Positions 11,831 to 48,072 of a stretch of DNA of 64,000 nucleotides are shown in pieces. The stretch's first letter is position 1; each line of letters begins with the position of its first letter. The notes below the pieces were generated by a model. The model made no database searches. It was given only the letters and a program-made list of their open reading frames with translations, and was not told the DNA's origin. Source of the DNA: Acinetobacter phage vB_AbaSI_3; sequence record PQ382034.1. The stretch is one strand, 5' to 3'. The translations under genes and the position numbers were made by a program.

Positions 11831-12184
11831 TTATTTGACTCCCATGCATGTATCTAATAATGTACGATAGTGTTTTGAATTAAGATAGCCAAACCGGAAA
11901 ACAGTCTCATCGATTGCCATTTGGCGACAAATCTGAACTGCGATAACTTCTGGTGAAATTTGTGGTTTGTTTCGTAGTTGTTCCATTACAGGACGCTCAC
12001 GTTCTACTGCATCATCAATATGTGTCTGAAGCATCTTGCGATGATTTTGCATATCTTCTTCTAAATCAATTCGACGTTGTTGATCAGCTAAACATCGTTT
12101 GTCCCATCCTTTGCACATTTGTATATCTTCAGCAAAAGATAAACTTGGAATAGCTAATGCTAGTGCAATCAATACAAATTTCAT
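11831..12184 (-). CDS. secreted hypothetical protein (signal peptide MKFVLIALALAIPSLSFA)
   Basis: Classic signal peptide with an AxA cleavage site. Confidence 0.5.
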   Translation of the reverse strand: MKFVLIALALAIPSLSFAEDIQMCKGWDKRCLADQQRRIDLEEDMQNHRKMLQTHIDDAVERERPVMEQLRNKPQISPEVIAVQICRQMAIDETVFRFGYLNSKHYRTLLDTCMGVK

Positions 12185-12875: not shown

Positions 12876-13175
12876 TTAACCGAAACGCCTTGTAAGATGT
12901 TCAACCATATTGTCTGCAATAGATGCAGCTGATGAAGAAACTCCATCGCATCCACGAAGGACACCGCTATTTGGCAGATATGCCAATGCACAAGCCTTCC
13001 AGAATTCACGCTTCTCTAATTCTGTGATTGCGGGAATAGGTGTACTAAAAAGCTGGTATTCGCGAGCTTCATCTACCGATACAGTAGTTTTACATTTAGT
13101 ACAACGAACTTTAGGTGGACTACTTAGCAATACTGCGTCGAAATTAAATTCATGATTGCATAATAAACTGTTCAT
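12876..13175 (-). CDS. hypothetical protein (99 aa; CxxC...CxxC pairs)
   Basis: ORF track entry; cysteine pairs (CNHE...RCTKCKT) suggest a zinc ribbon. Confidence 0.45.
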   Translation of the reverse strand: MNSLLCNHEFNFDAVLLSSPPKVRCTKCKTTVSVDEAREYQLFSTPIPAITELEKREFWKACALAYLPNSGVLRGCDGVSSSAASIADNMVEHLTRRFG

Positions 13176-13208
13176 AACTTACCTCTAGAGGGCATAGAGC
13201 CCTCGGTT

Positions 13209-14381
13209 TTAAAAGTCAAATAAATCTTCTAATGAAGAACGTTTTTCTGCTTGCATACCTGCAGATTCACACATACCTTCCAAAGGTTTCTTATATGTTT
13301 TTGTAAACAATGACATAACGTCAACATGTTTTAAAACATCTTCACGAATTTCTTTAGGAAGTTCGTTGCCTGATGGCCATGCAATAACTTTGTCGCCAAA
13401 TGGATTTCCAGGTTTCAAAGGCAAGATCATAACTTTATCACCTTCACTAATATCCGGTAAGTTATCGAATGCCTTAATTGCACGTCGATACGTCAAAACA
13501 CCACGAATATGACTAGGACATTTCAATCCAGGGAAGCCATTATCATCATATTTTGCAATGTTATTTGCAGTTCTTACACCTGCAATAACTTTGTAATCAA
13601 GATTTCTAAATTCATTTTCAAATTTCTTGAAATAGTCTTGAAGTGGCTTTTCACCTTCTTGAAGCATGATTCGAATACTTTCTAATAATGCATCTTTAAC
13701 CGCTTTAGGTGTAGATGATTGTTGAGTTTCCATGCCCATGATTTTCAAGTATGGCTCTTTAAAACGAGTACCTTCCATGTCATACACATTTAATGCATAA
13801 CGTTTCTTAGCTCGCCAGAATCCGCCGATGCCGTTAGAACCAAGTGGTGGGCATGCAATAGCTTCACGATCCATGAACATTAATTGCTCATAGTTGTTAA
13901 GATATTCGCACAGTTCTTGGAAGCCTGCATTAATAACCGGTTCGATTTTCTTTGAACCTACTGCATCCAAGAAGTCAACTAATTTTTCAGTTGATGCAAA
14001 TTTTTCAATGCCAACTTTATCAATGAGTGGACTCAATTCAATATACAATGAATCTGTATCACCATAAATTACATACGGATGATTAGTTGTTCCACACATT
14101 TCATTAAGGTATGCATTAATTTTTCGTTCTGTCCATTGAAGGACCAATTGTCCGAAAATAGTAATCGCTTCTGCATTACGAAGATCGTAAAATCTAAAGT
14201 AGATATTGCCGAGTGCCCCATATAATGAGTTAATGAGCAACTTCCGATTAATTTGATTCGTATCACACAAAACAATATAATTTTCACATTCATGCTCAAG
14301 TTCAAGCAATTCTTCTTGTGAAAGTGTTTTGAGATATTCGATTTCGGATTCAGTTAAGTCACGACTAAAATCTAATTTCAT
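13209..14381 (-). CDS. 43B: DNA polymerase, C-terminal (palm/thumb) segment, gp43B
   Basis: It aligns with T4 gp43 residues ~520-898 (LINSLYGALGNIYFRFYDLRNAEAITIFGQ, YGDTDS, KKRYALNVYDMEG, IMGMETQQSSTPKA, GNPFGDKVIAWPSG). Confidence 0.9.
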   Translation of the reverse strand: MKLDFSRDLTESEIEYLKTLSQEELLELEHECENYIVLCDTNQINRKLLINSLYGALGNIYFRFYDLRNAEAITIFGQLVLQWTERKINAYLNEMCGTTNHPYVIYGDTDSLYIELSPLIDKVGIEKFASTEKLVDFLDAVGSKKIEPVINAGFQELCEYLNNYEQLMFMDREAIACPPLGSNGIGGFWRAKKRYALNVYDMEGTRFKEPYLKIMGMETQQSSTPKAVKDALLESIRIMLQEGEKPLQDYFKKFENEFRNLDYKVIAGVRTANNIAKYDDNGFPGLKCPSHIRGVLTYRRAIKAFDNLPDISEGDKVMILPLKPGNPFGDKVIAWPSGNELPKEIREDVLKHVDVMSLFTKTYKKPLEGMCESAGMQAEKRSSLEDLFDF

Positions 14382-14402
14382 ATAAACTCCAAATTGATGG
14401 GA

Positions 14403-14567
14403 TTATTCTATAACATCATAATCAACTGACACTATAGCTTTAATTGTTAGTTCCTTTGAACAGGATTCGCAATTGACTTTGAATTCTTCATCAGCATGTC
14501 TCCAATGCTCAAAGTAATCAGACGTGTCAAGTTCAGAATTGCAGTGTGGGCAGTATATTTCAAACAT
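14403..14567 (-). CDS. small zinc-ribbon protein (54 aa: CPHC...CESC)
   Basis: Hand-translated: MFEIYCPHCNSELDTSDYFEHWRHADEEFKVNCESCSKELTIKAIVSVDYDVIE. It lies immediately upstream of 43B and is below the ORF-track cutoff. Confidence 0.45.
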   Translation of the reverse strand: MFEIYCPHCNSELDTSDYFEHWRHADEEFKVNCESCSKELTIKAIVSVDYDVIE

Positions 14568-14677
14568 TTCTGTGCCTCAAAAGGGATATGACAATTATAT
14601 CATATCCCTTATCAAAAGCTTAACTATAATTCAGATTGTATAATGTAATACGAATCACTTTAGGCGTACGTTTATAT

Positions 14678-14896
14678 TCAAAACATCGCATTGATAACTT
14701 CGGTGCCGGCAATTACAGGATTTTTAAACATGATACAACCTGTAACAAATCCGGCTAAAAACAACACCGGAATACAGATTAATAGGGCTACAAAAACTCG
14801 ATACCACAAGCTAACGTATTCACCAATTGATTCACAATTTTCATTTGCTACTTTAATTTGTTCGAAGATATTCATAGGCCTAACTCCCACAGGCAT
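14678..14896 (-). CDS. small membrane protein (72 aa) in the gp43 intervening segment
   Basis: Hydrophobic stretch YRVFVALLICIPVLFLAGFVTGCIMF. Confidence 0.4.
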   Translation of the reverse strand: MPVGVRPMNIFEQIKVANENCESIGEYVSLWYRVFVALLICIPVLFLAGFVTGCIMFKNPVIAGTEVINAMF

Positions 14897-15189
14897 TGGT
14901 TTAATAACTGATTGATTGAACGTTCGTTATGTATAGATTCATTAAGAAGCTGAGCTATAACACGATAATCTGTTTCACTATTGCATCGAGCGTTAAGAAT
15001 TGTTTGTGCATTTGTGCGACACATATCAAACGTTTTGAAGAAACTGTCATAACGAGGCAAACGAATTGCATTTAACACATTAGGTTTCCAAACAACATTG
15101 AACTTGCCATTGACTTCATCAATAAAGAACAACATAGTTTCAATAGATTGAGTATATGTGTACTCTTCGGCCGATGTATAAACTCTCAT
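14872..15189 (-). CDS. hypothetical protein (105 aa) in the gp43 intervening segment
   Basis: ORF track entry; no nuclease motif seen. Confidence 0.45.
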   Translation of the reverse strand: MRVYTSAEEYTYTQSIETMLFFIDEVNGKFNVVWKPNVLNAIRLPRYDSFFKTFDMCRTNAQTILNARCNSETDYRVIAQLLNESIHNERSINQLLNQCLWELGL

Positions 15190-15530
15190 CGACTTACCTC
15201 CATATCAAAATCTACAAATTTAGCTCTACATTCCTGATAGACACTATGCATTAAATCTAACACTCCATAATTGAATTGAGAATTTTCTGATTTCCCAAGC
15301 AGAGCTCGGGAGCGTGCCGCTATTTCTGAATTTATAAATTCTAGAACTTCTTTACCTTGTGGATATCGTAGCATCTTAGGCACGAATTGTGCGTCAATAG
15401 TAATATTACATCTGCCTCTTAACACAGTAGCTATAAATGGATAATATTCTATCCAATGCTCGCCTGTCGAGCTTGATATTACTCTATTTTGTCCATACAT
15501 AATAACCTCGTAATATATCAAATTAATCAA
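15186..15530 (-). CDS. hypothetical protein (114 aa) in the gp43 intervening segment
   Basis: ORF track entry; overlaps the upstream gene at its stop/start. Confidence 0.45.
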   Translation of the reverse strand: MINLIYYEVIMYGQNRVISSSTGEHWIEYYPFIATVLRGRCNITIDAQFVPKMLRYPQGKEVLEFINSEIAARSRALLGKSENSQFNYGVLDLMHSVYQECRAKFVDFDMEVSR

Positions 15531-15557
15531 ATCATCTAATTTCGGCGCTGTGCGCCG

Positions 15558-15648
15558 GCTGCGCAGCAGCTATTCTGTACCGAACGGCAGATATAATTAG
15601 AGCGGTGAACCGGTAGAACCATTATACCATCAAAATTTTGTAAAGCAC
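15558..15648. repeat. copy A of a dispersed inverted-repeat element (GC hairpin gctgcgcagc + attctgta + 60-bp core)
   Basis: 15589-15648 matches the reverse complement of 46994-47054 at 59 of 60 positions. The gctgcgcag / attctgta motifs further left also match 47191-47226. It is followed by the palindrome aaagcactcgtgtgcttt. Confidence 0.7.
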
Positions 15649-15695
15649 TCGTGTGCTTTATGAATATAGATCATTTTATGAACACTCAAACCAAA

Positions 15696-15923
15696 TCATA
15701 ACAATTCTTGGATTCTTCTAGATTTATACTGCATAAGTTCGGTACGTGTCATTCCTGAAGTGTCCTGTTCACACTGCGTGTTAACTGTTTTAATCATAAT
15801 GAGGGTATTATGATTTATATTATCTATAGGAAGTTGTCGCCGGTGTGTGTCTGGCGTAACTATTCTGCATGGATATTGCTTTGCGATATCTCTAATACTT
15901 TCATAATATTGCTTAAGTGGCAT
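15696..15923 (-). CDS. hypothetical protein (75 aa) in the gp43 intervening segment
   Basis: ORF track entry; an extended -10 box lies 26 nt upstream. Confidence 0.45.
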   Translation of the reverse strand: MPLKQYYESIRDIAKQYPCRIVTPDTHRRQLPIDNINHNTLIMIKTVNTQCEQDTSGMTRTELMQYKSRRIQELL

Positions 15924-15948
15924 ATCAAATCTCCATAGATTTTAGAAT

Positions 15949-15958
15949 AATTATATCA
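15949..15958 (-). promoter_or_regulatory. early promoter, extended -10 (TGATATAAT)
   Basis: Reverse complement of aattatatca. Confidence 0.4.
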
Positions 15959-15995
15959 TAATCAAAAAGCAAAGTAAATATTTTAGACAAAAATA

Positions 15996-16017
15996 AAGGA
16001 CCCATTTGGGTCCTTTA
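15996..16017. terminator. hairpin aaaggaccc-attt-gggtccttt
   Basis: A perfect 9-bp stem, intergenic within the gp43 insert. Confidence 0.45.
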
Positions 16018-16029
16018 GATAAAATGAAA

Positions 16030-16320
16030 TTATACAACGCTATACATTGTAACCGCAATAGGTAGAATTTCATTTGTCAATGTATTAAGACTGCCTCCAG
16101 TGATAGGAGTACCTTGGAAACGATGAACGATACGTTCAATTTCAACAACTTTTCGTTTATTAGTTTCTCGATCACGTGGATCAATTACCAATTTGATATT
16201 ATCATCTTTAAATTCCAGTGCAAGGATCCCAAGAGTAATTTTTGCATCTAACGAACGTGTAGAACGAGTATCAATTACTGGAGCTGCTGTGTTAAATTGT
16301 AATTTAGATTGCTGGATCAT
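16030..16320 (-). CDS. hypothetical protein (97 aa; start MIQQSKLQ) in the gp43 intervening segment
   Basis: The track ORF 16030..16386 begins at a TTG that would span the promoter. The internal ATG at 16320 lies 35 nt downstream of a TGATATAAT box. Confidence 0.45.
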   Translation of the reverse strand: MIQQSKLQFNTAAPVIDTRSTRSLDAKITLGILALEFKDDNIKLVIDPRDRETNKRKVVEIERIVHRFQGTPITGGSLNTLTNEILPIAVTMYSVV

Positions 16321-16354
16321 AATATCTCTACGTACTTTGTAAGTTGATAGGATT

Positions 16355-16363
16355 ATTATATCA
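16355..16363 (-). promoter_or_regulatory. early promoter, extended -10 (TGATATAAT), immediately after the 43A stop
   Basis: Reverse complement of attatatca at 16355-16363. Confidence 0.4.
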
Positions 16364-16387
16364 ATAACCCTATCACATGTAAACAAA

Positions 16388-17896
16388 TTATTTCATTAAT
16401 TTTTTAATCACTTCGGCATTACGTTTTGCAGCCATCATTTTCTTCTTCCATTCTTTACGTTGGAAGAACACTTTAGTAATTTCTTGTGGAATGATACCTT
16501 GCTTTGTCTTCGAATACATCATACCACTTGGCGAGCATGAGAATTCATTTGAAGGGCTCGGCGCAATCTTATTAATGAAATCGCTAAGTTTAGGCGGCGC
16601 AAATTGTCCTGCAATTGTTTCTGGGCTAATGTTTACTTGGCGAATGATTGACGGATACAGAGATGTTACGTCAAACGACAAAACATATTTGTACGCACCA
16701 GGCACAGGGTTTTTAACATATGCGCCTTCATACGGTTGTCGAACATTTGGCTTAGCTTCCGGTAAAACTAAGTGCTCGGCTTTTAATGAGTTGAAGATAA
16801 TTGCATCCCAAGTTTTCACAGGACTCATTACTGTTGCAATATTCATTCGAGCGTAATAGCCCATTGAAATTGACAGGTTGATAAATCCACGTTTTGCGTC
16901 AATTGCTTGTACACAGTACACATCGACAATGTTATATGAAATATAACGCTGGTGGTTTGATTCACGTAATTTGTCGATTGGACCGTCATATTCTAATTTG
17001 TTGATGCCGGCTTCATATTCTGCAATATAATCGAGTTTATATGATGGCTGTGAAGTAAACGCAAACTTTTTATATAAATCCATGTAATCGAGAATCATGA
17101 TTCCAGAAATATTGAAAATTTCTTTATCTCCATACATGTTTTGAATGACTTTTGACGTTACTTTACCAAAAGGACTTAAACGTTTCATGTTCGAGACACC
17201 AAGAACGTTTTTGATACGATTTACAATATATGGAATATCAAATCCTTCAACGTTCCAACCGGTGAAGATGACAGGAGTTTTTTCTTCCCATAAACGAATG
17301 TATTCTAACAGCATTTCCTTTTCTGTTTCGAATGGCATATACACAACTTTATCTAAAATATGTTGTGGAACTTCATCGCCGCCTTCATCAATTGATTTGC
17401 CTGCAAGAACCGGATCCCACTTTGAAACACGTCCACGTTGAGAGTTCAACAAGTCAAACACGTAGTATTTGTCATCAATAGAATCATAGTGTGTAATTGC
17501 ATCAATTTCATATTTTGCAAAGGTCGGATTCGGGAACTCTCCTGCTGTTACCTCGATGTCACAGTTTGCAACACGAATTGCATTTCTGCTATATGTGATG
17601 TCCTTTTTTCCATACACATCAGAAATATATGCAAGTTTGAAGTCATCCATACCTAAAATTTCTACAATTCCACGTGTCTTTTGCATCCAGTCTTTAGCTT
17701 CACGAATGGAGCTAAAACGTTTAGGAATACATGGCTTGCCATAAATGTCTTTATATTTTGATTCAACGCCTTCTTTGGCATGAATGAACAGTGTAGGCTC
17801 ATATGGAATTTCACGAACTTTTTCGACGCCATTTTCCACATAACGCTCTTGAATAAGGTCGCCAGATTGTTCAACTACTAGATAGAAATTATCCAC
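16388..17896 (-). CDS. 43A: DNA polymerase, N-terminal and 3'-5' exonuclease segment, gp43A
   Basis: Near-identical blocks to T4 gp43 residues 1-505 (DFKLAYISD, RVANCDIEVT, YEIDAITHYDSIDD, FTGWN.EGFD.PYI.NR, HQRYISYNI.DV, VMSPIKTWDAIIFNSLK, DVTSLYPSIIRQVNISPETI, GIIP.EI.KVFFQRK.WKKKM). It ends where T4 continues with KGAGSCS... Confidence 0.9.
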   Translation of the reverse strand: MDNFYLVVEQSGDLIQERYVENGVEKVREIPYEPTLFIHAKEGVESKYKDIYGKPCIPKRFSSIREAKDWMQKTRGIVEILGMDDFKLAYISDVYGKKDITYSRNAIRVANCDIEVTAGEFPNPTFAKYEIDAITHYDSIDDKYYVFDLLNSQRGRVSKWDPVLAGKSIDEGGDEVPQHILDKVVYMPFETEKEMLLEYIRLWEEKTPVIFTGWNVEGFDIPYIVNRIKNVLGVSNMKRLSPFGKVTSKVIQNMYGDKEIFNISGIMILDYMDLYKKFAFTSQPSYKLDYIAEYEAGINKLEYDGPIDKLRESNHQRYISYNIVDVYCVQAIDAKRGFINLSISMGYYARMNIATVMSPVKTWDAIIFNSLKAEHLVLPEAKPNVRQPYEGAYVKNPVPGAYKYVLSFDVTSLYPSIIRQVNISPETIAGQFAPPKLSDFINKIAPSPSNEFSCSPSGMMYSKTKQGIIPQEITKVFFQRKEWKKKMMAAKRNAEVIKKLMK

Positions 17897-17925
17897 GTTA
17901 TCTCCTTGGTAGGGTATTTTGTATC

Positions 17926-17934
17926 ATTATAACA
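17926..17934 (-). promoter_or_regulatory. early promoter, extended -10 (TGTTATAAT) upstream of 43A
   Basis: The reverse complement of attataaca lies 30 nt upstream of the 17896 start. Confidence 0.4.
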
Positions 17935-17972
17935 CCACAAAAGAGGAAGCTAACTCCCTCTTTTATTTTAAA

Positions 17973-18206
17973 TTACTTAGATTCAACAACTGTAGTCTTT
18001 GTCATTTCTTCGCGAGGTATCCAAGTGTTCTTGCCAGTTTTGACATAACATCCGGTGATAAAACTATATTTGGTTTGACGACCTGTAATAGATTCATAAC
18101 TGTTACATTTAACATAACCACTTACCGTATTGTATGTTAAGCCTACTACAACAATAACACAGACGATAATAACAGAGAATACGAGTTCAGTTAAATTATT
18201 ACTCAT
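17973..18206 (-). CDS. small membrane protein (77 aa)
   Basis: TM segment LTELVFSVIIVCVIVVVGLTY; sits between regA and 43A. Confidence 0.4.
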   Translation of the reverse strand: MSNNLTELVFSVIIVCVIVVVGLTYNTVSGYVKCNSYESITGRQTKYSFITGCYVKTGKNTWIPREEMTKTTVVESK

Positions 18207-34235: not shown

Positions 34236-34274
34236 AATATTTTACTCAATGTAGTATTTGATTTGATATGTCTA

Positions 34275-34283
34275 TTATACCAT
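34275..34283 (-). promoter_or_regulatory. early promoter, extended -10 (TGGTATAAT)
   Basis: The reverse complement of attatacca lies 40 nt upstream of the ATPase start. Confidence 0.4.
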
Positions 34284-34335
34284 AAAGTGTAATAGGCGTA
34301 AACATTTATTGAAAAATATTTACGCCTATTTGTTG

Positions 34336-40995: not shown

Positions 40996-41035
40996 GGTTA
41001 TCTCTTTTGTGTATTTGATAGTTTAATTATACCAA

Positions 41036-41044
41036 ACTTGATCT
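41036..41044 (-). promoter_or_regulatory. early promoter, extended -10 (TGGTATAAT)
   Basis: The reverse complement of attatacca lies 41 nt upstream of the lipoprotein start. Confidence 0.4.
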
Positions 41045-41066
41045 ATGGTGTAAATAGTTTTGACAA

Positions 41067-41099: not shown

Positions 41100-41340
41100 G
41101 ATGGTAAGTTCATCAGGTCTTACAAGCCCTTAAAGGAACTTAATCTGGCAGGCACTGAACGAATCGAACGCTCGTTAATGGGGTTGGAGCCCACTGTAAT
41201 AACCACTATACGAAATGCCTGTGGCGGAAAGCAGTGTAATCGAAACACAACCGAATTAACAGTCCACTCGCTTAGCAGGCGGTGCCAATCACCCTATTGG
41301 ATTACTTTCCTTAGAATAAACATAATGATGTGACAAGCCA
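41100..41340 (-). ncRNA. candidate structured non-coding RNA region (GC-enriched, multiple local hairpins) adjacent to the tRNA array
   Basis: The region contains hairpin cctgatggtaagttcatcagg and other local stems, has higher GC than its surroundings, and has no convincing ORF (the + ORF 41082..41333 has no SD and odd composition). T4 carries stable RNAs C/D near its tRNA genes. Confidence 0.3.
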
Positions 41341-41688
41341 TTGATTTTGGCGTTGTATATTATTGGTGAGGCGGCGAGAACGTTCTTCATCTTCTTTGCG
41401 ACGTTTTTCTCGCTCAGCCTCTTGTCTTGCAATTCTTTTACGTGTCTCTTCCTCAATTGATCGTTCACTATGGCCACTATATCGTGGAAATCCAGTGCTA
41501 TACGAAGGTGAATCAAACCCCGTTCCATTACGCATTGTCATTTCATTCATGCGTCTTGAGAAATCAACATATTGAGAAACGCTCATATTTCCTCCAAGGA
41601 ATATGGTGGAGTGTGATGGAATTGCACCATCCTAATCCTGCTCTTCAGGCAAGCGCTAATCTATCTCAGCTAACACTCCAAAAGTAAA

Positions 41689-41765
41689 TGGTCTCCGTAA
41701 AATGATTTGAACATTTGACCCTATCGTCCCAAACGATATGCTCTACCAGACTGAGCTATACGGAG
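41689..41765 (-). tRNA. tRNA-Pro (anticodon TGG), CCA encoded
   Basis: Hand-folded: acceptor CTCCGTA/TACGGAG, D arm GCTCAGTCTGGTAGAGC, anticodon loop TTTGGGA, T arm AAATGTTCAAATCATTT, ACCA 3' end. Confidence 0.75.
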
Positions 41766-41766
41766 A

Positions 41767-41861
41767 TGGCGGAAGGTGAGGGGAACGATCCCTCAAGGCG
41801 TGTCACCACGCTCGACTGATTTCAAGTCAGCTGCCGTCGCCAGCCATCGGCTTGACCTTCC
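41767..41861 (-). tRNA. candidate type-II tRNA-Ser (anticodon TGA) with an atypical T-loop
   Basis: Acceptor GGAAGGT/ACCTTCC + G + CCA, anticodon arm GCTGA-CTTGAAA-TCAGT, long variable arm GCGTG-GTGA-CACGC. The T-loop ATCGTTC is non-canonical. Confidence 0.45.
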
Positions 41862-42086
41862 AATATTTTTCAATTCTCACTTAAGGCGGAGGAACACCTA
41901 AATTGTCTTGTGTAGAATGTCCTTTTATACTTTCGAGCATTCTACCACTCAATAAGTAAATCTTGAAGTTTAGTACATTTAACGAGTTGATACTTCAACA
42001 AGCTCATAAACAAGACAATAAAAACATGACGACCTAGGAATTTACGCCATTAGGACACCTAGGTCCATTTACGTCATTTTTGAATT

Positions 42087-42163
42087 TGGCTCCCCGCGGT
42101 GGGTTCGAACCACCGACCTCCAGATTAACAGTCTGTCGCTACTACCAACTGAGCTAGCGGGGA
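42087..42163 (-). tRNA. tRNA-Asn (anticodon GTT), CCA encoded
   Basis: Acceptor TCCCCGC/GCGGGGA + G + CCA, anticodon loop CTGTTAA, T arm GGTGGTTCGAACCCACC. Confidence 0.7.
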
Positions 42164-42170
42164 ATAATGT

Positions 42171-42250
42171 TGGAATCACCCGGAGGAATCGAACCTCTCA
42201 CTTCCTTCCCACTTTTTAAGTATCTGCTTAGAAGGCAGATGTGGGGGCGA
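42171..42250 (-). tRNA. tRNA-like element: Arg-type anticodon hairpin (TCT) plus canonical T arm, but no recognisable D arm (possible pseudo-tRNA)
   Basis: TCTGC-CTTCTAA-GCAGA hairpin and GAGGTTCGATTCCTC T arm with a CGGGTGA 3' acceptor strand. The 5' half does not form a cloverleaf by eye. Confidence 0.3.
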
Positions 42251-42269
42251 GCGACATAAATTCTTAAAG

Positions 42270-42340
42270 TTCTGGCACGAGGAATCGAACCTCGGTGACT
42301 GGAGTACAAAACCAGCATAATACCATTATATGACGCCAGA
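42270..42340 (-). tRNA. tRNA-Thr (anticodon TGT), CCA not encoded; acceptor stem extended by a 10-bp leader/trailer duplex
   Basis: Acceptor TCTGGCG/TGCCAGA, anticodon loop TTTGTAC, T arm CGAGGTTCGATTCCTCG. The flanking gttcttaaagt / actttaagaa extend the acceptor stem to 17 bp. Confidence 0.65.
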
Positions 42341-42656
42341 ACTTTAAGAACTTTTGATAATATTATTTATACAACCATAAAGGCACCGTCATGACCACTC
42401 ATCAAGAACACAGTGAGTTAAAACTTTTTGTGATGAGATTAATAAGGCCTAATCGAAAACATTTGAACTTTGCTAAATAAAAACTTTGATCTTTAAGATT
42501 TTAGCTTTGAACTTTAGCATTGGGATAATGTACAGGATTCGCGCTTGGGAAACCTATATCATCATCAAAGTTCTATAACCTTAGAAGTTAGCCGGATTTA
42601 GGAATACCGGCTCGAACCCTCTACAGTTTTTGATCATGACGATTAAAATTTACCTA

Positions 42657-43223
42657 TCAGTCGATAACGATTGTAGGATTTGTTTCAGTTAAAATTGCAT
42701 CGAATTCAAGATCGAAGAAATCAATTGTAGATTTGAGCTCATCAATTTGTTCTTGAATTTCCATAATTGTAGGTTTTTCTCGTTTTTCCATTAATTGCTT
42801 GAGCTCATCATCGTGTGCAGCTTTAGACAATTTAACTTCGTAATCACGTTCGATGTTAGCAAATGTAGCACGAGCACTAGCTAGCTCTTTCACTAAACGT
42901 GTATACAAAGCTTTAAGTCGAGGTAAAATATGTGTACGATACGTTAATGCATCGTTGATAGACATTTGTTCTTTGCCTACGGTTACCATCGTTTCAAAAT
43001 TTGCTTTATTGACCTTTTTGCGAAGATCAAATTCTGCATCAAGTTTGTCTTTAATTGATTGTATGTTTTTACGAGATTTGTCAACAAATTCAGCAGTTTT
43101 GATTCCAGTGCTAATCTCTACACCATTACGGAATACACCGCAGAATGTCATTTCACGAAGATTTTCGTCGAAAGACACTTTGTTGCGTTTAAGTGTTACT
43201 AATGCACGAGCGATGGTAGTCAT
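42657..43223 (-). CDS. hypothetical protein (188 aa)
   Basis: ORF track entry. Confidence 0.45.
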   Translation of the reverse strand: MTTIARALVTLKRNKVSFDENLREMTFCGVFRNGVEISTGIKTAEFVDKSRKNIQSIKDKLDAEFDLRKKVNKANFETMVTVGKEQMSINDALTYRTHILPRLKALYTRLVKELASARATFANIERDYEVKLSKAAHDDELKQLMEKREKPTIMEIQEQIDELKSTIDFFDLEFDAILTETNPTIVID

Positions 43224-43299
43224 TCAAATTTCCTCTAATCAAAATAATCTTTAATTTATGTAGTTAATTATATAACATAAATCATTAAAAGCCTTTGCT

Positions 43300-43536
43300 T
43301 TACGAATAAGTTTGTGTTGGTTCATAAAATAAACGTTCTTTCAACATTCTGTCGAGCTTTGCAATTGCGGCAGATCGGTTAAGGTACTGTGAACGTTTAT
43401 TTGCACTTTCGGCAATTAAACCAGTTGGTAAATGAGTAACACGTACTGCATTAAAAGGCCGATTGACCCATCGGCGTGCACCACTTGTTCTATACTCATC
43501 AATTCTCAATTCACTAGGTTTGAATGAGTAATCCAT
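43300..43536 (-). CDS. ArfB/RF-H-like peptidyl-tRNA hydrolase-domain protein with the GGQ motif replaced (SGARRW)
   Basis: RTSGARRWVNRPFNAVRVTHLPTGLIAESANKRSQYLNRSAAIAKL parallels E. coli ArfB [20 protein letters not shown]...YRSQELNREAALARL. The DNA was re-read to confirm GGQ is replaced by ARR. Confidence 0.6.
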   Translation of the reverse strand: MDYSFKPSELRIDEYRTSGARRWVNRPFNAVRVTHLPTGLIAESANKRSQYLNRSAAIAKLDRMLKERLFYEPTQTYS

Positions 43537-43549
43537 ATCAATATTCTCA

Positions 43550-43792
43550 TTACTTCAATTTAATTTTGGCTTCAAATACGTAGCGATAATTGTTATCACA
43601 TAATATTTCAGCTCGTTCATATGTTGTGGCCATTCGCAATACTGCTCCAGTATATGAAACGATTGCAAAAACACAATCAGTTGAATCCGGTGATGCGATA
43701 TCACCAACTTTAAAACGAAGTTTTCTATAAGTATATTTATCATCATACTTACATAAGAATTTGGCTAAACTTAACGAGAATGTGAATCTCAT
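43550..43792 (-). CDS. hypothetical protein (80 aa)
   Basis: ORF track entry. Confidence 0.4.
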   Translation of the reverse strand: MRFTFSLSLAKFLCKYDDKYTYRKLRFKVGDIASPDSTDCVFAIVSYTGAVLRMATTYERAEILCDNNYRYVFEAKIKLK

Positions 43793-43898
43793 AACTTTAC
43801 CGTCTTCGTTAAAAATTCCATAGATGCTTCGTTGAGAAGTTTTATCTATGCAGTTTCGACAGATCTAATGTTTCATATTTTTTCCTCATTAAATTAAA

Positions 43899-43976
43899 TG
43901 GTACATGACCTCGGACTCGAACCGAGAGGCTCTTGTTTCTAAGACAAGAAGGTATACCAATTCCCGTCAGTCATGC
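43899..43976 (-). tRNA. tRNA with anticodon TAG (Leu-type reading, CUA/CUG), short variable arm, enlarged D region
   Basis: Acceptor GCATGAC/GTCATGT + A + CCA, anticodon arm TCTTGT-CTTAGAA-ACAAGA, T arm CTCGGTTCGAGTCCGAG. Confidence 0.5.
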
Positions 43977-43977
43977 A

Positions 43978-44053
43978 TGGTGGATACTGGGAGTGCTTGC
44001 ACCTCCAATCAACTACGTTGTCCGCTGCTTTACTATTTAAGCTAACAGTACCC
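43978..44053 (-). tRNA. tRNA-like element, 76 nt, correct acceptor and ACCA end but non-canonical T-loop and no clear anticodon arm (possible degenerate tRNA)
   Basis: Acceptor GGGTACT/AGTATCC + ACCA. It is packed at 1-2 nt spacing between the flanking tRNAs. The T region GGAG-GTGCAAGCA-CTCC lacks the TTC motif. Confidence 0.3.
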
Positions 44054-44055
44054 AA

Positions 44056-44131
44056 TGGAGACGTCGACTGGACTTGAACCAGCATCGTCACGGATTTGCA
44101 ATCCGTCGTATAACCATTCTACCACAACGTC
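44056..44131 (-). tRNA. tRNA-Cys (anticodon GCA), CCA encoded
   Basis: Acceptor GACGTTG/CGACGTC + T + CCA, anticodon arm ACGGA-TTGCAAA-TCCGT, T arm GCTGGTTCAAGTCCAGT. Confidence 0.65.
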
Positions 44132-44138
44132 TTAAACT

Positions 44139-44213
44139 TGGTGGGCCCAGGGAATTTCGAAATCCCAACCTTCAGATTATGAGTCTGCTGCTCTGCCTTT
44201 GAGCTATAGGCCC
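44139..44213 (-). tRNA. tRNA with CAT anticodon (Met, or Ile if lysidine-modified), CCA encoded
   Basis: Acceptor GGGCCTA/TGGGCCC + A + CCA, D arm GCTCAAAGGCAGAGC, anticodon loop CTCATAA. Confidence 0.7.
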
Positions 44214-44222
44214 ATTTAAATT

Positions 44223-44297
44223 TGGTACTCGTGACCAGAGTCGAACTGGTAACCTAAGACTTTAGAGGTCTCTGCTCTACCATTGAGCTACACGAGT
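44223..44297 (-). tRNA. tRNA with predicted CTA anticodon (amber-reading suppressor-type), canonical cloverleaf
   Basis: Acceptor ACTCGTG/CACGAGT + A + CCA, D arm GCTCAATGGTAGAGC, anticodon arm GAGAC-CTCTAAA-GTCTT (U33 and A37 in place), T arm ACCAGTTCGACTCTGGT. Confidence 0.5.
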
Positions 44298-44663: not shown

Positions 44664-44879
44664 TTATTCAGCAGTTTTTGAACGTTTTTCAATAATTGCT
44701 GAGATTAATGCAAAAATCATTGAGATTGAAATAAATTTTAAAGATGTTAATCCTAAAGCTTTAATTTCAGCATTAGTCATGAATATACCGAATACCGCAG
44801 TAGTCAATGCAATTACCATGCCAACGAAAAAGATCCAATAGGCAGAAGTTTCAAAAAATTCAATAACTTTAGCATTCAT
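44664..44879 (-). CDS. small membrane protein (71 aa, 2 TM)
   Basis: Hydrophobic segments WIFFVGMVIALTTAVFGIFM and ISMIFALISAII. Confidence 0.4.
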   Translation of the reverse strand: MNAKVIEFFETSAYWIFFVGMVIALTTAVFGIFMTNAEIKALGLTSLKFISISMIFALISAIIEKRSKTAE

Positions 44880-44965
44880 GATAATTTACTCAATGATTTA
44901 TTTGATAAAACTATAATAACACAATTAATTTGCGATGTAAACTGCTTTATGAAATAATTTTCAAA

Positions 44966-45421
44966 TTATGCAGTCCACTCTAAATCAAGATCTTGTACGT
45001 ATTCACTTGCAGCAATAATCGGGTTGCTAATGAAACCTACCTTTGGCAACTCACGTTGTCCAATATCATATGATAGTGTAACATGTGGTTGATAGTCAGG
45101 AAAATCATAAGTTGCACCTAATGCCATTGCATATTTAAAGCGCTCATGAAGATAATCTGAATCAATGAGTATAACAAGAGCTCGTTCACCTGTTTTAGTG
45201 TCAAAAACCTTTAACTCACCGGTAACACCAATTTGTTCGCCTATCAACTGTGGCTGATAAGGAATTTTCACCCGAGAATATGCAATTGTGCAATGCAATT
45301 TGTCTCGCGGGACAGGCTTGTAGAGATCCAATGATTTTTGGATCTCTTGTAACAAGTCTAATGTTTCATCAGCGAAATTGATTGCGGCATAAGTACCTTT
45401 GCCAACTTCACTTAGTTTCAT
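44966..45421 (-). CDS. 2H-phosphoesterase superfamily protein (LigT/CPDase-like), in the gene 57B position
   Basis: Two H-x-T/S-x motifs are present (HCTIAY and HVTLSY) in a 151-aa protein. Confidence 0.5.
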   Translation of the reverse strand: MKLSEVGKGTYAAINFADETLDLLQEIQKSLDLYKPVPRDKLHCTIAYSRVKIPYQPQLIGEQIGVTGELKVFDTKTGERALVILIDSDYLHERFKYAMALGATYDFPDYQPHVTLSYDIGQRELPKVGFISNPIIAASEYVQDLDLEWTA

Positions 45422-45660
45422 TATTCAGCCTCTGGTTCAGCTTTGGCTTCTTCATCACCAACAGCAAGACCAGCTACAGCTTGAACGATTGTATCTAATT
45501 CAAGGTTGCCGGTTTCATCCGGTTGCAAACCTAAAATTTGTGCAATAGATTGAAGTGTTTGAGATAATTGTTGATTGTGCTGATGAAGCGCCTGATTAGC
45601 TTCGATAGCATCTAACAATTTTGCTTTAGTTTCAAGTAATGTTTGGTTAACGTCTGTCAT
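45421..45660 (-). CDS. 57A: tail-fiber assembly chaperone gp57A-like (79 aa coiled coil)
   Basis: Size, low-complexity Q/L/A-rich coiled coil (QALHQHNQQLSQTLQSIAQILG) and position immediately upstream of gene 1. Confidence 0.55.
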   Translation of the reverse strand: MTDVNQTLLETKAKLLDAIEANQALHQHNQQLSQTLQSIAQILGLQPDETGNLELDTIVQAVAGLAVGDEEAKAEPEAE

Positions 45661-46384
45661 TTTGTAATACCTCTGTGTGAAATAAATTCGAAATTTTCTG
45701 TTTAAATTCCTCTAATGTTCCATCATTATGGATGACTGGATCACCTGGTTGCCGCTGAAGTCCTGCTTCAGTAATGTGATTGTCTGTATTAGTGTTAGTA
45801 TTTATACTATCACGCTCTACAAAAATTAATCGTGCGTTGATGAAACGCATAAAATCAATTTCATGTTGTTGACGAATGTCTGTGACAATAAAAATCTTTG
45901 CGCCATTTGCAAATTCGGTGATGTACTGATTCATCATTAAACGAAGCCAGAAATGTTTGTCGTAGTGTTCACAAACAAGATCTGTGCCTAAAATTTGCAT
46001 AAGTCTGCGAACTGTCCACGGCTCTATATTTCTATTGATGCTATTAAAAACACTCAAATAACTTTCGAAACCAGAGGTCAAGTTTTCACGAAGACCGTAT
46101 TGCTCAATGAGAATTTTAATACATTTTCGAAGCCAATCATTTACATCAGAATTTGACAAAATCAACGGAGATTCTCTATCGTATGGAGAGTCGCCATTAA
46201 AATCAGCAAATGATAAGCTTAACCCAGACTTTGTTGAAAGATTCAATTCAGAATAGGTTTCAAATAATACCTTTTTGATGGGCAGAGCAAGTGCATATTT
46301 GACCGCACCTAGCTCTTCTACCATGTAATCAGCCATAGTGTCTTTGCCACTACGTTTCTTACCTACAATAGAAACAATTGTCAT
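45647..46384 (-). CDS. 1: deoxynucleoside monophosphate kinase gp1
   Basis: N-terminal GKKRSGKDTMADY...AVKY.LA.PIK matches T4 gp1 (GVKRSGKDTTADF...AVKYQLAGPIK); 245 aa. Confidence 0.8.
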   Translation of the reverse strand: MTIVSIVGKKRSGKDTMADYMVEELGAVKYALALPIKKVLFETYSELNLSTKSGLSLSFADFNGDSPYDRESPLILSNSDVNDWLRKCIKILIEQYGLRENLTSGFESYLSVFNSINRNIEPWTVRRLMQILGTDLVCEHYDKHFWLRLMMNQYITEFANGAKIFIVTDIRQQHEIDFMRFINARLIFVERDSINTNTNTDNHITEAGLQRQPGDPVIHNDGTLEEFKQKISNLFHTEVLQNDRR

Positions 46385-46950
46385 AAGATTTCTCGTTTGC
46401 CGTTCATTAACATATCCGAAATACTTTTCCGTGTTTCTATTATAACACCATTTTTTTCTACAGTGAAGTAGCTATATTGAAAGGTTACGTTAGCAAAAAT
46501 AGCCGGGTCCGATTCTTCTGTGTAATTGAATTCAAGGTCACCAATAACTTGTGGCCACGCGTCATGATAGTGAATTGACATAAGTGGTGTCGTTTTATCA
46601 TTAGATAATATGTGCAGTGTTATAAATTCTGGCAAGACACCAGGATTAGCACCATTATTGTCATGAGTTAGATAGTTATTGATTGATAGCATCCATGTAT
46701 AAATGTCTGTCCATGCATCTAGATTTTCATCGATTAGCACGCGGCATACCAATGGCTCAAATTCAAATGTTGAACCTGGGCGGTTAGCACGCCCGAGGCC
46801 TTTATTGCCTAGTGCCATATTGACTGTTGGTATACTGATACCCGGGATTAATGCAGATTGGACATTGAGTTTGAAAGCATCGGTGATTTTAGCATCAGGG
46901 ATGTCCAATACAAAGTTAGTTATGTTAGTTTGGTTAAATTGTAGTGTCAT
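46381..46950 (-). CDS. 3: tail tube terminator / sheath stabiliser gp3
   Basis: Position between gene 1 and gene 2, and size (189 aa vs T4's 176). Confidence 0.6.
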   Translation of the reverse strand: MTLQFNQTNITNFVLDIPDAKITDAFKLNVQSALIPGISIPTVNMALGNKGLGRANRPGSTFEFEPLVCRVLIDENLDAWTDIYTWMLSINNYLTHDNNGANPGVLPEFITLHILSNDKTTPLMSIHYHDAWPQVIGDLEFNYTEESDPAIFANVTFQYSYFTVEKNGVIIETRKSISDMLMNGKREIL

Positions 46951-46993
46951 AATGTGCCTTGTTTAAAATTTGATCACTTAGCTTGTTAAGCCC

Positions 46994-47226
46994 TGTGCTT
47001 TACAAAATTTTGATGTTATAATGGTTCTACCGGTTCACCGCTCTAATTATATCTATTCGGTCGGAGAAGATAGAGTTTCAGATGATATAGATGTATCAGA
47101 TGATATAGATGTATCAGATGATATAGATGTATCAGATGATATAGATGTATCAGATGATATAGATGTATCTGATATATCTGCACTGAAAAATACAGAATAT
47201 TGTGCTGCGCACAATGATGCGCAGCA
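46994..47226. repeat. copy B (inverted) of the dispersed element, carrying an internal 18-bp x5 tandem array and a 9-bp-stem GC hairpin (tgctgcgca-caatga-tgcgcagca)
   Basis: 46994-47054 is the reverse complement of 15589-15648 (59/60). The attctgta and gctgcgcag motifs are shared with copy A. The tandem array interrupts the element relative to copy A. Confidence 0.7.
47081..47170. repeat. tandem repeat, 18-bp unit gatgatatagatgtatca x5 (last copy ends ...tct)
   Basis: Five perfect head-to-tail copies read directly from the sequence. Confidence 0.9.
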
Positions 47227-47232
47227 TCTAAT

Positions 47233-48072
47233 TTATTTCTTCCATACTTTTGAGGCTGCAAAACGTTTACCTTGTGATACAAATTGTTGAAGTGGCATCA
47301 GGACTACATTACCCCAATCAGCAGGTTTAATTTCAACGAATCTGCCTTTTACATGAGCAGGCAAATATGCTTTAATCATTACATCAGCGCCATTGAAGCC
47401 TTTAACTTTTGACCAATCAATTTTAAGTACAGTATTATTTGTGATAGTTTTTGTAGATGAATAACTTTTTAATAACTCTTCTAAAAATTGTTGTCGTGCT
47501 TTAGGTGGAATATAATGCAAGTTAAGGCCATGAAATAAAGTTGTGCCAGCAACTTTGGAACGGGACGTTCCTAAAAATATGATAAGTGGATATTTATCCC
47601 AAAATGGTAACTTGTCTTTATGTTTAGCATCATATATGAAAGCATAAAGTTTACCCGGCTGTGGCTTGACCACAGAGTGTCCTCGGACACCTTTAGCAAG
47701 AGTTTCTTTAAACCATTTCTCAGATTTATTGTTTACTGCAGCACCTTCATTACGAATTTTTTCTCGCATCGATTGTCTAAAGCTATTAATCAAAATTGCT
47801 TCACGTTCTTTAGGTGTCAACTTATTTTTAGGTTTGTTCTTAGCCAATTCAGCTGCATAAGCGAGCTTGATTTTATCTCTATAGCGTGTCATGCTTCTAG
47901 TAAAAGTCGCATATGGGATTCCACGTTCTTCGGCAAATGCTTTACCTTGTACGCCTTTAGCTTTGGCCTTGTACCAATCAACACCAATATTAACCCATGC
48001 TAGTTCTTGGCGTGTGATTTTAGGCTGAAGATTTTTTGGCACTTCGGCTTCATCTAATTGAAAAATACTCAT
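47233..48072 (-). CDS. 2: DNA end-protector protein gp2
   Basis: Position (3-2-4 order as in T4), size (279 aa vs T4's 274), basic composition. Confidence 0.65.

Follow-up and report, generated by a model that had tools for sequence, protein, structure and literature searches.

Bacteriophage T4 has five active replication origins, oriA, oriC, oriE, oriF as well as oriG, as given in its annotation and in reviews (PMC3016281). The uvsY promoter, between genes 25 and uvsY, is the site of oriF. Gene 34 contains oriG, which corresponds to promoter P34i, and gene 5 contains oriE; oriA is found at the 5' end of gene 56 and oriC close to rI.-1. Both oriF and oriG consist of a MotA promoter and an AT-rich unwinding element, and both are primed from an R-loop (PMC3016281). 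The T4 origins share no local sequence motif, the mechanisms of oriA, oriC and oriE are unclear, and three origins lie near strand-switch regions (between genes 4 and 53-5, between 25/26 and 51, and between rnh and 34; PMC3016281). T4-type phages also carry mobile regulatory cassettes termed promoter-early stem-loops (PeSLs; Arbiol et al. 2010, PMC2839356). Here we describe an intergenic element, two copies of which (A and B) lie in a 64,000-nt stretch of the genome of Acinetobacter phage vB_AbaSI_3 (PQ382034.1), referred to below as the window. Sequence comparison firmly supports the element as a functional promoter family that occupies four or five fixed loci, evolves concertedly and is akin in position and design to the PuvsY family of T4. 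We tentatively favour, at slightly under an even chance, a reading in which all five modules would function as oriF-type primer or origin promoters and several would, in addition, drive replication or recombination genes. Our literature search found no paper describing the element.

Within the window, positions 15589-15648 (copy A) and 46995-47054 (copy B) are reverse complements at 59 of 60 positions (repeat finder: 60-nt arms, 98% complementary, 31,346 nt apart; local BLAST, E = 3e-27). The preliminary description of this DNA had reported the pair with the first arm placed correctly and the second beginning one base early, at 46994. It also placed both copies between genes and copy A inside an insert in gene 43, and the positions of the open reading frames (ORFs) on either side agree. 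Copy A lies between minus-strand ORFs 15186-15500 and 15696-15923, within the ~2-kb insert that splits gene 43 into 43B (13209-14381) and 43A (16388-17896). Copy B lies between gene 3 (46381-46950, minus strand) and gene 2 (47233-48072, minus strand). A proposed extension of the similarity to ~110 bp held in part: ATTCTGTA is common to A (15572-15579) and B (47191-47198), a GC palindrome built on GCTGCGCAGC is found in A (15558-15567) and in the B hairpin (47204-47225), and a tandem array does interrupt copy B, but the two hairpins differ structurally. The true extended homology is a mosaic of modules, visible only when all five genomic copies are aligned.

The element had been taken for a two-copy pair, a view that self-comparison of a whole relative overturned. 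The window is ~99% identical to Acinetobacter phage PhaR5 (Straboviridae, Twarogvirinae, Lazarusvirus; T4-like), and a 171-bp segment around copy A matches phage phi1_092060 at 100% identity. PhaR5 holds five copies at fixed loci:

~30.5 kb: between rnh and gene 34
62.4 kb: upstream of srd, adjoining a tk.4-like gene (the srd copy)
94.1 kb: copy A, in the gene-43 insert
126.2 kb: copy B, between gene 2 and gene 3
164.5 kb: between gene 25 and the uvsY.-2 homologue

All five are intergenic, their 60-bp cores are at least 96% identical, and of the 11 strongest pairs of dispersed repeats in the PhaR5 self-comparison 10 belong to this family, the dominant dispersed repeat of that genome. The gaps between copies are 31.9, 31.8, 32.1, 38.3 and 30.5 kb in this 164.5-kb genome, and 34.1, 32.2, 40.5, 32.0 and 30.4 kb in phage Maestro. 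Searching PhaR5 with T4 UvsY (tblastn) gave no match; the gene after the copy in the oriF slot is a uvsY.-2 homologue.

The element was found in ~51 phage records, all from Acinetobacter T4-like phages except one labelled Tegunavirus, at five and occasionally six places per record. In Maestro the sixth copy comes from a 59-bp unit duplicated in tandem at the gene 2/3 junction, an explanation that covers Maestro only and leaves KARL-1 and AB-Navy-v2 aside. Scanning IMG/VR with a 27-mer matched only AbTZA1 and Kimel contigs, and a 14-mer scan gave chance matches only. Because the same arrangement recurs in ~50 independently sequenced phage genomes, the element is not an assembly artefact; nor is it one of many (>10) ubiquitous low-complexity matches, there being five specific copies, none of low complexity, in whole relatives.

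In Maestro (Hadassahvirus) each of the five loci holds a copy, with its orientation unchanged. In ZZ1 (Zedzedvirus) the same design recurs between rnh and gene 34 and, antisense again, at the gene 2/3 junction: TGCTTTA or CGCTTTA, N14 and TGnTATAAT, after which comes a tandem repeat of another sequence (GGGTTTAYCCCC TAYCCCC). Looser ZZ1 relatives lie between srd and tk.4, between gene 25 and uvsY.-2, and at 60.4 kb near nrdC, for a total of four syntenic loci and the nrdC one. We also noted six weak places matching the ZZ1-type promoter (83% identity over 47 nt) in Acinetobacter phage AB1I1M-1 (OQ627712.1), which belongs to another T4-like lineage. Further genera probably carry the multi-copy family as well.

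Alignment of the five copies resolves a modular unit of ~130-200 bp, which in the promoter direction reads:

Upstream A/T box, GATCAAAWTTT
Stem-loop, TAAAGCAC-N4-GTGCTTTA
Promoter core: TGCTTTA, a 14-bp spacer and TGnTATAAT
Transcribed block: GGTTCTACCGGTTCACCGCTCTAATTATATCT, then (A/G)TTCGGTCGGAGAAGATAG
GC hairpins: optional, in copy A and the srd copy
AT-rich iteron-like box, AGATGTATCTGATATATC: once in most copies, a tandem array in copy B

The first 24 nt of the transcribed block (GGTTCTACCGGTTCACCGCTCTAA) are the same in all PhaR5, Kimel and window copies, bar one substitution in PhaR5 copy A, and also in Maestro, bar a 1-nt deletion common to two copies. Other substitutions are genus-specific yet common to all paralogues (AATTATATCT in Lazarusvirus, AAATTTATCT in Hadassahvirus), and the srd copy of Kimel bears A-type downstream sequence. 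Such lineage-specific block sequences indicate concerted evolution, in which the copies exchange sequence. In PhaR5, the bidirectional terminators beside copy A and the srd copy (94531-94567, near window position 15990, and 62547-62583) share 37 bp at 94.6% identity. Lying beyond the element itself, this shared segment suggests an exchange of larger blocks between the pair of loci. The 37-bp sequence was not found exactly in the window, where the terminator differs.

Exchange of this kind raises the prospect of neutral concerted evolution, in which ordinary promoters in large intergenic regions would have been homogenised by the highly active recombination machinery of T4-like phages with no special function in common. 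The genus-specific substitutions in all paralogues, the shared Maestro deletion, the mosaic exchange in Kimel and the 59-bp Maestro duplication all fit this explanation, as do the ZZ1 paralogues, which are much less alike. We nevertheless consider it quite unlikely. The core is ~90% identical between genera as against 71-78% for flanking intergenic DNA, and gene-less promoters have been retained since the split from T4. Dispersed 60-bp repeats should also be costly in a recombinogenic genome because they allow deletions and inversions, and yet they persist in both orientations at the same loci in ~50 genomes of two genera.

The promoter signature is carried in copy A by the following features:

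15641..15660: stem-loop TAAAGCAC-TCGT-GTGCTTTA (self-match), upstream of and overlapping the -30 box
15641..15647, minus strand: TGCTTTA box (MotA-box-like), 14 bp upstream of the -10 hexamer
15621..15629, minus strand: extended -10, TGGTATAAT; predicted start ~15614
15570..15620, minus strand: discriminator and initial transcribed block GGTTCTACCGGTTCACCGCTCTAATTATATCT, then GCCGTTCGGTACAGAATAG
15543..15567: two GC-rich hairpins, CGGCGCTGTGCGCCG and the palindrome GCTGCGCAGC, in the transcribed leader
15502..15542, minus strand: AT-rich, G>C-skewed box with degenerate iteron-like GATATAT/AGATG
15186..15500, minus strand: ORFan of 104 aa, the first ORF downstream of the promoter; gene 43B follows further on

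The corresponding features of copy B are:

46960..46975, minus strand: A/T-rich box GATCAAATTTTAAACA, directly ahead of the gene 3 ribosome-binding site; upstream with respect to the plus-strand promoter
46996..47002, plus strand: TGCTTTA box, 14 bp upstream of the -10 hexamer
47014..47022, plus strand: extended -10, TGTTATAAT; predicted start ~47029, antisense to late genes 4-2-3
47023..47075, plus strand: initial transcribed block GGTTCTACCGGTTCACCGCTCTAATTATATCT, then ATTCGGTCGGAGAAGATAGAG
47070..47177, plus strand: 18-bp tandem array ATAGATGTATCAGATGAT, 6.1 units (Tandem Repeats Finder)
47202..47227, plus strand: terminator hairpin GTGCTGCGCA-CAATGA-TGCGCAGCAT with tail CTAATTTATT (terminator scan, 10-pair stem)

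The box, the TGn extension, TATAAT and their spacing are conserved between genera, and the spacer sequence has diverged; this cross-genus signature bears out an earlier suggestion that the element is a shared regulatory module. Hadassahvirus (Maestro, AbTZA1) has the spacer versions TGAAATTTGTATG, TAAAAAGTTGATG and CGAATTTTTTGTG with the 14-bp length, TGn and TATAAT retained, and the 14-bp distance from box to -10 holds in three genera (Lazarus, Hadassah and ZZ1). Of the two tandem Maestro copies at the gene 2/3 junction, one has a degenerate box (TGCTATC) and the other none. The rnh/34 copy has a sigma70-type TTTACA at 17 bp instead, in both Lazarusvirus and Hadassahvirus. A sigma70 scan found no -35/-10 pair at the element in A or B, and the family is without a -35 at four loci; an extended -10 can work alone. 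The TGCTTTA-N14-TATAAT arrangement had been recognised in the preliminary description and is indeed present, on the reverse complement of the strand as written there. A promoter on the strand as written there was rejected: Hadassahvirus does not keep the 'TATAAT' of that strand (AGATATAAT becomes AGATAAATT), and a -35, a TGn and a late TATAAATA are all missing.

The T4 MotA box, (a/t)(a/t)(a/t)TGCTTtA, lies 12 +/- 1 bp from the sigma70 -10 element (review). The 14-bp spacing of the TGCTTTA box, earlier labelled 'MotA-box-like', is atypical for MotA promoters, so that MotA dependence of the element is unproven; the phage encodes homologues of both MotA and AsiA. We set the transcription start by analogy with the mapped T4 starts of PuvsY (115371) and PnrdC.7 (53325), which lie 7 nt past TATAAT at the A of TCT-A. 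By this analogy initiation should occur at the A of GGTTCT-A-CCGG, near 15614 on the minus strand for copy A and near 47029 on the plus strand for copy B. The block that would be transcribed first holds a tandem direct repeat, GGTTCTACC/GGTTCACC.

The flanking modules vary more from copy to copy. The GATCAAAWTTTRAWCA box is common to the copies in the five-copy alignment. The TAAAGCAC/GTGCTTTA stem-loop is present at three of the five PhaR5 copies and copy B lacks this stem; in Maestro it becomes CGTAAAGCA/TGCTTTACG, with G-T wobbles turned into Watson-Crick pairs. In copy A it looks like a terminator or insulator against transcription from ORF 15696-15923. The GC hairpin module of the copy A type also follows the promoter at the 62.4-kb srd copy and occurs in Maestro with its loop altered and its stem kept. 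Between the window (15543-15557) and PhaR5 copy A, the transcript strand of this hairpin reads CGGCGC-ACA-GCGCCG and CGGCGC-TGT-GCGCCG, respectively; the whole hairpin is thus reverse-complemented, which could reflect exchange between inverted copies or three substitutions. The copy B array is AT-rich and purine/G-skewed on the transcript strand; it counts 6.1 units in the window, ~2.5 in PhaR5 and ~1.5 in Maestro, and Kimel has unrelated sequence in its place. The hairpin at 47202-47227 would stop the plus-strand transcript after ~200 nt, before the gene 2 stop codon (47233-47235), and its complement is predicted to double as the gene 2 terminator. An 89-aa plus-strand ORF (47021-47290) was rejected as a protein: it starts inside the -10 hexamer, has no ribosome-binding site and is mainly translated array (DDIDVS repeats), and at the other copies it runs to only 16-17 codons.

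Three copies face genes, namely rnh, the uvsY.-2 cluster and the ORFs of the gene-43 insert, with 43B farther downstream. Copy B and the srd copy, in contrast, are antisense to local transcription, have no gene downstream and would meet terminators after ~150-200 nt; for copy B, a good plus-strand terminator is present in PhaR5 as well as in the window. No late promoter was found between genes 2 and 3, which places copy B inside the late 4-2-3-1 transcription unit. Only two TGnTATAAT sites in the window are on the plus strand, that of copy B among them, as against 19 on the minus strand. The antisense orientation at the gene 2/3 junction is also that of Maestro, ZZ1 and T4.

The T4 version of the promoter can be followed by its motif TATAATGnnTCTAAGYCC, which occurs exactly four times in T4 (98.5% of the genome searched):

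11885, plus strand: srd/modA, antisense
53337, minus strand: PnrdC.7
75988, plus strand: gene 3/2 junction, antisense, in the slot of copy B
115383, minus strand: PuvsY/oriF

The sites at 11885 and 75988 are well-formed promoters of the MotA type (TGCTTTA-N12/13-TGGTATAAT), antisense to modA and gene 2, and both are missing from the 2010 table of mapped middle promoters. The T4 version of the motif is conserved in hundreds of T-even genomes, and the antisense promoter at the gene 3/2 junction shares TGGTATAATGnnTCTAAGTCCnTnCCA with PuvsY/oriF. Copy A, in the gene-43 insert, has no T4 counterpart. Counted in kb from rIIA, the loci line up as follows:

Upstream of srd: T4 11.9, ZZ1 17.5, Maestro 14.0, PhaR5 15.9
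Second site (nrdC region or gene-43 insert): T4 53.3, ZZ1 60.4, Maestro 48.1, PhaR5 47.7
Between gene 3 and gene 2: T4 76.0, ZZ1 79.3, Maestro 80.2, PhaR5 79.7
Between gene 25 and uvsY: T4 115.4, ZZ1 117.9, Maestro 120.8, PhaR5 118.0
Between rnh and gene 34: T4 none with the motif (oriG 2.2 kb away), ZZ1 149.6, Maestro 152.8, PhaR5 148.5

In oriF/PuvsY, as in the element, the promoter combines a TGCTTYA box with TGGTATAAT; next come a conserved start region and, after it, an AT-rich segment. The 164.5-kb copy of PhaR5 occupies the identical slot downstream of gene 25 and points the same way, toward the uvsY.-2 homologue, and the motif that follows the -10 of PuvsY recurs in T4 at the gene 3/2 junction and at srd/modA, in the places and directions that copy B and the srd copy have. 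In size, the element (~100-200 bp) compares with the ~100-bp minimal oriF (PMC3016281). Three differences stand beside these likenesses: the spacing is 12-13 bp in T4 and 14 bp in the element; the transcribed block is ~45 nt in the element as against ~12 nt, of other sequence, in T4; and the Acinetobacter-phage copies are near-identical, almost evenly spaced and known from sequence, whereas the origin activity of oriF has been mapped.

The other T4 origins compare less directly. At oriG, P34i is likewise a gene-less antisense promoter of the MotA type, ~2 kb from the rnh/34 junction that holds a family copy, and it offers a precedent for promoters kept only to make primer RNA; it differs in lying inside gene 34 and in its weak motif resemblance (TATAATGGTCCCAGAG), whereas the Acinetobacter copy is intergenic with a sigma70-type -35. 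The iterons of oriE resemble the 18-bp array of copy B, and the related box present at least once in all copies, in being direct repeats beside an origin promoter. They are, however, GTTGAAGGTAAT with a 24-bp period inside the gene 5 coding sequence, whereas the number of units in the phage array varies and some relatives do without it; the two are unrelated in sequence, and we rejected the oriE iterons as relatives of the array. Three of the five copies, like three of the T4 origins, lie near strand-switch regions. A gene-level match of all five copies to annotated T4 origins was also rejected, as it holds for oriF only and the others are 2-8 kb off.

The main rival account would treat the family as purely transcriptional: five strong early or middle promoters, each with an insulating stem-loop upstream, related to PeSLs, whose shared leader is an operator or leader for a phage or host regulator. 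Such a cassette would coordinate the expression of rnh, of the uvsY.-2 cluster and of the genes in the gene-43 insert. It would also yield two short RNAs, antisense or non-coding, and would have no part in replication. The promoter signature across genera agrees with it, as do the stem-loops that abut the promoter, the tandem repeat GGTTCTACC/GGTTCACC at +1, which looks like a putative protein-binding site, and the three of five copies that point at replication and recombination genes. So does PnrdC.7, the T4 member that is merely a mapped middle promoter.

PeSL-like units also occur in the phage itself, whose early promoters comprise ~30 PeSL-like GTTTACA-N17-TGnTATAAT sites, nearly all on the minus strand of PhaR5. 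Both kinds of unit are repeated intergenic strong promoters with a stem-loop terminator, able to recombine with one another, and the TATAATGGTTCTA of the element resembles some of these ~30 cassettes (PhaR5 52113, Maestro 34050), a further point for the transcriptional account. In copy A the stem-loop (15641-15660) overlaps the promoter box, and in copy B the hairpin is downstream (47202-47227). Copy A is also PeSL-like in being flanked by ORFans and co-directional with them. PeSLs, however, are numerous (dozens per genome), co-directional with the ORFans that they flank and located in hyperplastic regions, with a sigma70 -35 and only a short shared consensus (PMC2839356), whereas the element has five copies dispersed genome-wide, including one in the late operon and two antisense to local transcription, and A and B have no -35. 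Two of the five copies serve no gene and yet have kept their position and orientation from T4 to the Acinetobacter phages, and the even spacing is left unexplained. We regard a purely transcriptional role as possible, somewhat on the unlikely side.

PeSL-like sites of the form GTTTACn-N-TGnTATAAT occur in the window at 897-926, 1890-1918, 15950-15978, 16355-16383, 34274-34302 and 41026-41054, all on the minus strand. In most, the -10 is spanned by an inverted repeat and the start region reads ATCAA(A/C)T, and in part they coincide with two weak families of direct repeats (D4 and D9).

If each copy instead expressed a small RNA (sRNA), the transcript would begin with the conserved 45 nt and have its targets, in the host or the phage, in trans. 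In favour of such a gene family are the invariant 5' segment and, at the two gene-less copies, a promoter followed by a terminator (~150-200 nt). The conserved block, however, showed no covariation and no stable fold (RNAalifold and RNAfold; z of 0.1 to -1.0, with three invariant pairs only), and Rfam matched only tRNAs in the window, permissive scans giving 16-20 bits where gathering scores are 35-110 bits. A structured RNA was rejected on these results, the block folding no better than shuffled sequence. Past ~+50 the transcripts are wholly different among copies and among close relatives, and three copies run straight into coding genes. An sRNA family is thus very unlikely in our estimate, and the variable segment beyond ~+50, where the array has 1.5 to 6 units or is replaced, better fits a sequence-independent unwinding element such as that of oriF. 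Possible readings of the block as IHF-like, DnaA-box-like, ops-like or RegB (GGAG) sites were dropped as inconsistent between copies.

The setting of copy A bears on whether the element is mobile, or marks a mobile unit as the preliminary description had proposed. Each of the three Acinetobacter-phage genera examined has gene 43 in two parts, 43A and 43B. The insert of ZZ1 (44873-46790) shares homologues of window ORFs 14678-14896, 14872-15189 and 16030-16320; it is without ORFs 15186-15500 and 15696-15923, the ORFans flanking copy A, and without the element between them. ORF 15186-15500 had no Pfam or PHROG match. In AM101, DP45 and Lazarus, a homing-endonuclease gene lies within the 13000-18000 region that spans the gene-43 insert (14381-16388).

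Homing-type genes were also seen near other copies. The PhaR5 Srd anti-sigma homologue (317 aa; L002:11238-12191) adjoins the 62.4-kb copy, and its N-terminal region matches HNH endonuclease and endonuclease VII PHROG families (E = 6e-21) besides Srd. Maestro has a mobC-like gene inserted between the element and gene 2 (L133:30152-31078), and two mobB-like ORFs follow uvsW, ~1.4 kb from the 25/uvsY.-2 copy (L134:18621-19321).

A miniature transposable or homing-associated element, or a site for inversion of the 31-kb segment between A and B, would be consistent with a copy A situated in a lineage-specific indel of two ORFans absent from ZZ1, with the homing-endonuclease genes that adjoin some copies (mobC-like at the Maestro gene 2/3 junction, the HNH-like N-terminus of the Srd homologue), and with a second-locus copy that differs by lineage, in the nrdC region of T4 and ZZ1 and in the gene-43 insert of Lazarus and Hadassah. 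These observations lend the 'mobile unit' suggestion weak support, but the family loci are fixed, all five being occupied throughout the ~50 genomes, which represent two genera. That both genera share these loci, that ZZ1 has four of them and that T4 has counterparts at three indicates that the family has not recently been mobile. Aligning the five copies brought out no shared boundaries, terminal inverted repeats or target-site duplications, with no formal search made for the latter two. The proposed inversion likewise found no support, as A and B keep a constant orientation and a spacing of 32-34 kb in every sequenced relative in which both copies can be placed; no fixed inversion of the A-B segment occurs among the genomes listed, although rare inversions within a population may still occur. 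We judge a mobile or recombinogenic element to be extremely doubtful.

In the origin reading that we favour, RNA polymerase would start at the extended -10 promoter, transcribe the ~45-nt invariant block and then enter the AT-rich, G-skewed iteron-like box. There the transcript would form a persistent RNA-DNA hybrid in easily unwound DNA and prime leading-strand synthesis. For the copies at rnh, at the uvsY.-2 cluster and in the gene-43 insert (toward 43B), this transcript would double as mRNA for replication or recombination genes, as at T4 PuvsY. At copy B and the srd copy, transcripts would end at the terminator after ~150-200 nt without serving a gene, and gene conversion among the copies would maintain their near-identity. 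While the repeat family, its loci, its promoter signature, its concerted evolution and its homology to the T4 family in position and design are established here, transcription starts, R-loops and replication priming at the copies are what we infer from them.

The physical properties of the segment downstream of the promoter are compatible with this scheme. Each PhaR5 copy has, at +35 to +90, a 40-mer within the least stable 0.3-1.8% of genome 40-mers. In the copy A box the least stable 40-mer, at +74 from the predicted start, falls in the least stable 0.5%, as does that of PhaR5 copy B. GC skew on the transcript strand is +0.14 to +0.56 at the copies (+0.20 in the copy A box) compared with 0.03 +/- 0.18 at other TGnTATAAT sites. 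As indirect proxies, instability and skew agree with a region prone to unwinding or R-loop formation, and the 15502-15542 box of copy A, which leads to the ribosome-binding site of ORF 15186-15500, is a candidate for such a region.

The strongest arguments for origin promoters are the conserved gene-less antisense members, the link to oriF, the variable AT-rich downstream segment, the count of five and the even spacing. Both T4 and the Acinetobacter phages have kept the gene-less antisense promoters at the gene 2/3 junction and upstream of srd. A minimum gap at least as large as that observed in PhaR5 has a probability of 3e-5 for random points under a uniform null and of 6e-5 under a null limited to the 37 intergenic gaps of at least 100 bp; overall P is about 3e-5 to 2e-4, a striking value that is to be discounted somewhat because the statistic was chosen after the pattern had been seen.

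Besides this post hoc choice, several observations weigh against an origin role. Spacing is less even in ZZ1 (42.9/18.9 kb) and T4 (41.4/22.7 kb). The weakest of the instability values is reached by 26% of ordinary TGnTATAAT sites, and because the copies are homologous, their instability and skew are not five independent observations. Only one of the four T4 family members, PuvsY, is a mapped origin, PnrdC.7 being listed as an ordinary middle promoter; in T4, the annotated or described positions of oriA, oriC, oriE and oriG are 2-6 kb from the family loci to which they would correspond, and oriA and oriE fire the other way. For three copies there is an obvious ordinary function, that of driving the genes downstream. 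The 14-bp spacing is outside both the 12 +/- 1 bp of T4 MotA promoters and the 11-12 bp of the phage's own middle promoters (genes 32, rIIB and 39). Finally, transcription, R-loops and initiation at the copies are predictions from sequence.

Two further features of the window lie apart from the element. The direct-repeat pairs 3864-3958/5039-5133 and 4425-4515/5603-5693 are 74-77% identical and ~1.18 kb apart; they probably correspond to the tandem paralogous genes annotated as alpha-glucosyltransferases in PhaR5 (PhaR5_127/128). PhaR5_127/128 match each other at 66% over 640 bp. On the minus strand, 41149-44297 holds eight tRNA genes (Rfam), and the PhaR5 annotation of this region includes an amber-suppressor tRNA.

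The family spans T4 and three genera of Acinetobacter phages and includes both PuvsY/oriF, whose mechanism is understood, and two gene-less promoters. It is conceivable, and we advance it with more reserve than the origin reading itself, that T4-like phages keep about five primer promoters of the PuvsY type as origins: upstream of srd, at a movable second site, at the gene 3/2 junction, between 25 and uvsY, and between rnh and 34. In Lazarus and Hadassah this set would have been homogenised into near-identical 60-bp cores, one of which would have moved into the gene-43 insert to give a nearly perfectly even origin spacing of ~32 kb. If this is true, oriA, oriC and oriE of T4 need to be re-examined against the antisense promoters at 11.9 and 76.0 kb and PnrdC.7 at 53.3 kb. 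Even if the copies are only regulatory cassettes, concerted evolution and 60-bp repeats in both orientations are unusual in a highly recombinogenic genome. Near-identical and nearly equidistant, the copies are easy to mutate, clone and follow; they are candidate origins in phages for A. baumannii therapy and may provide a new handle on what defines a T4-type origin.

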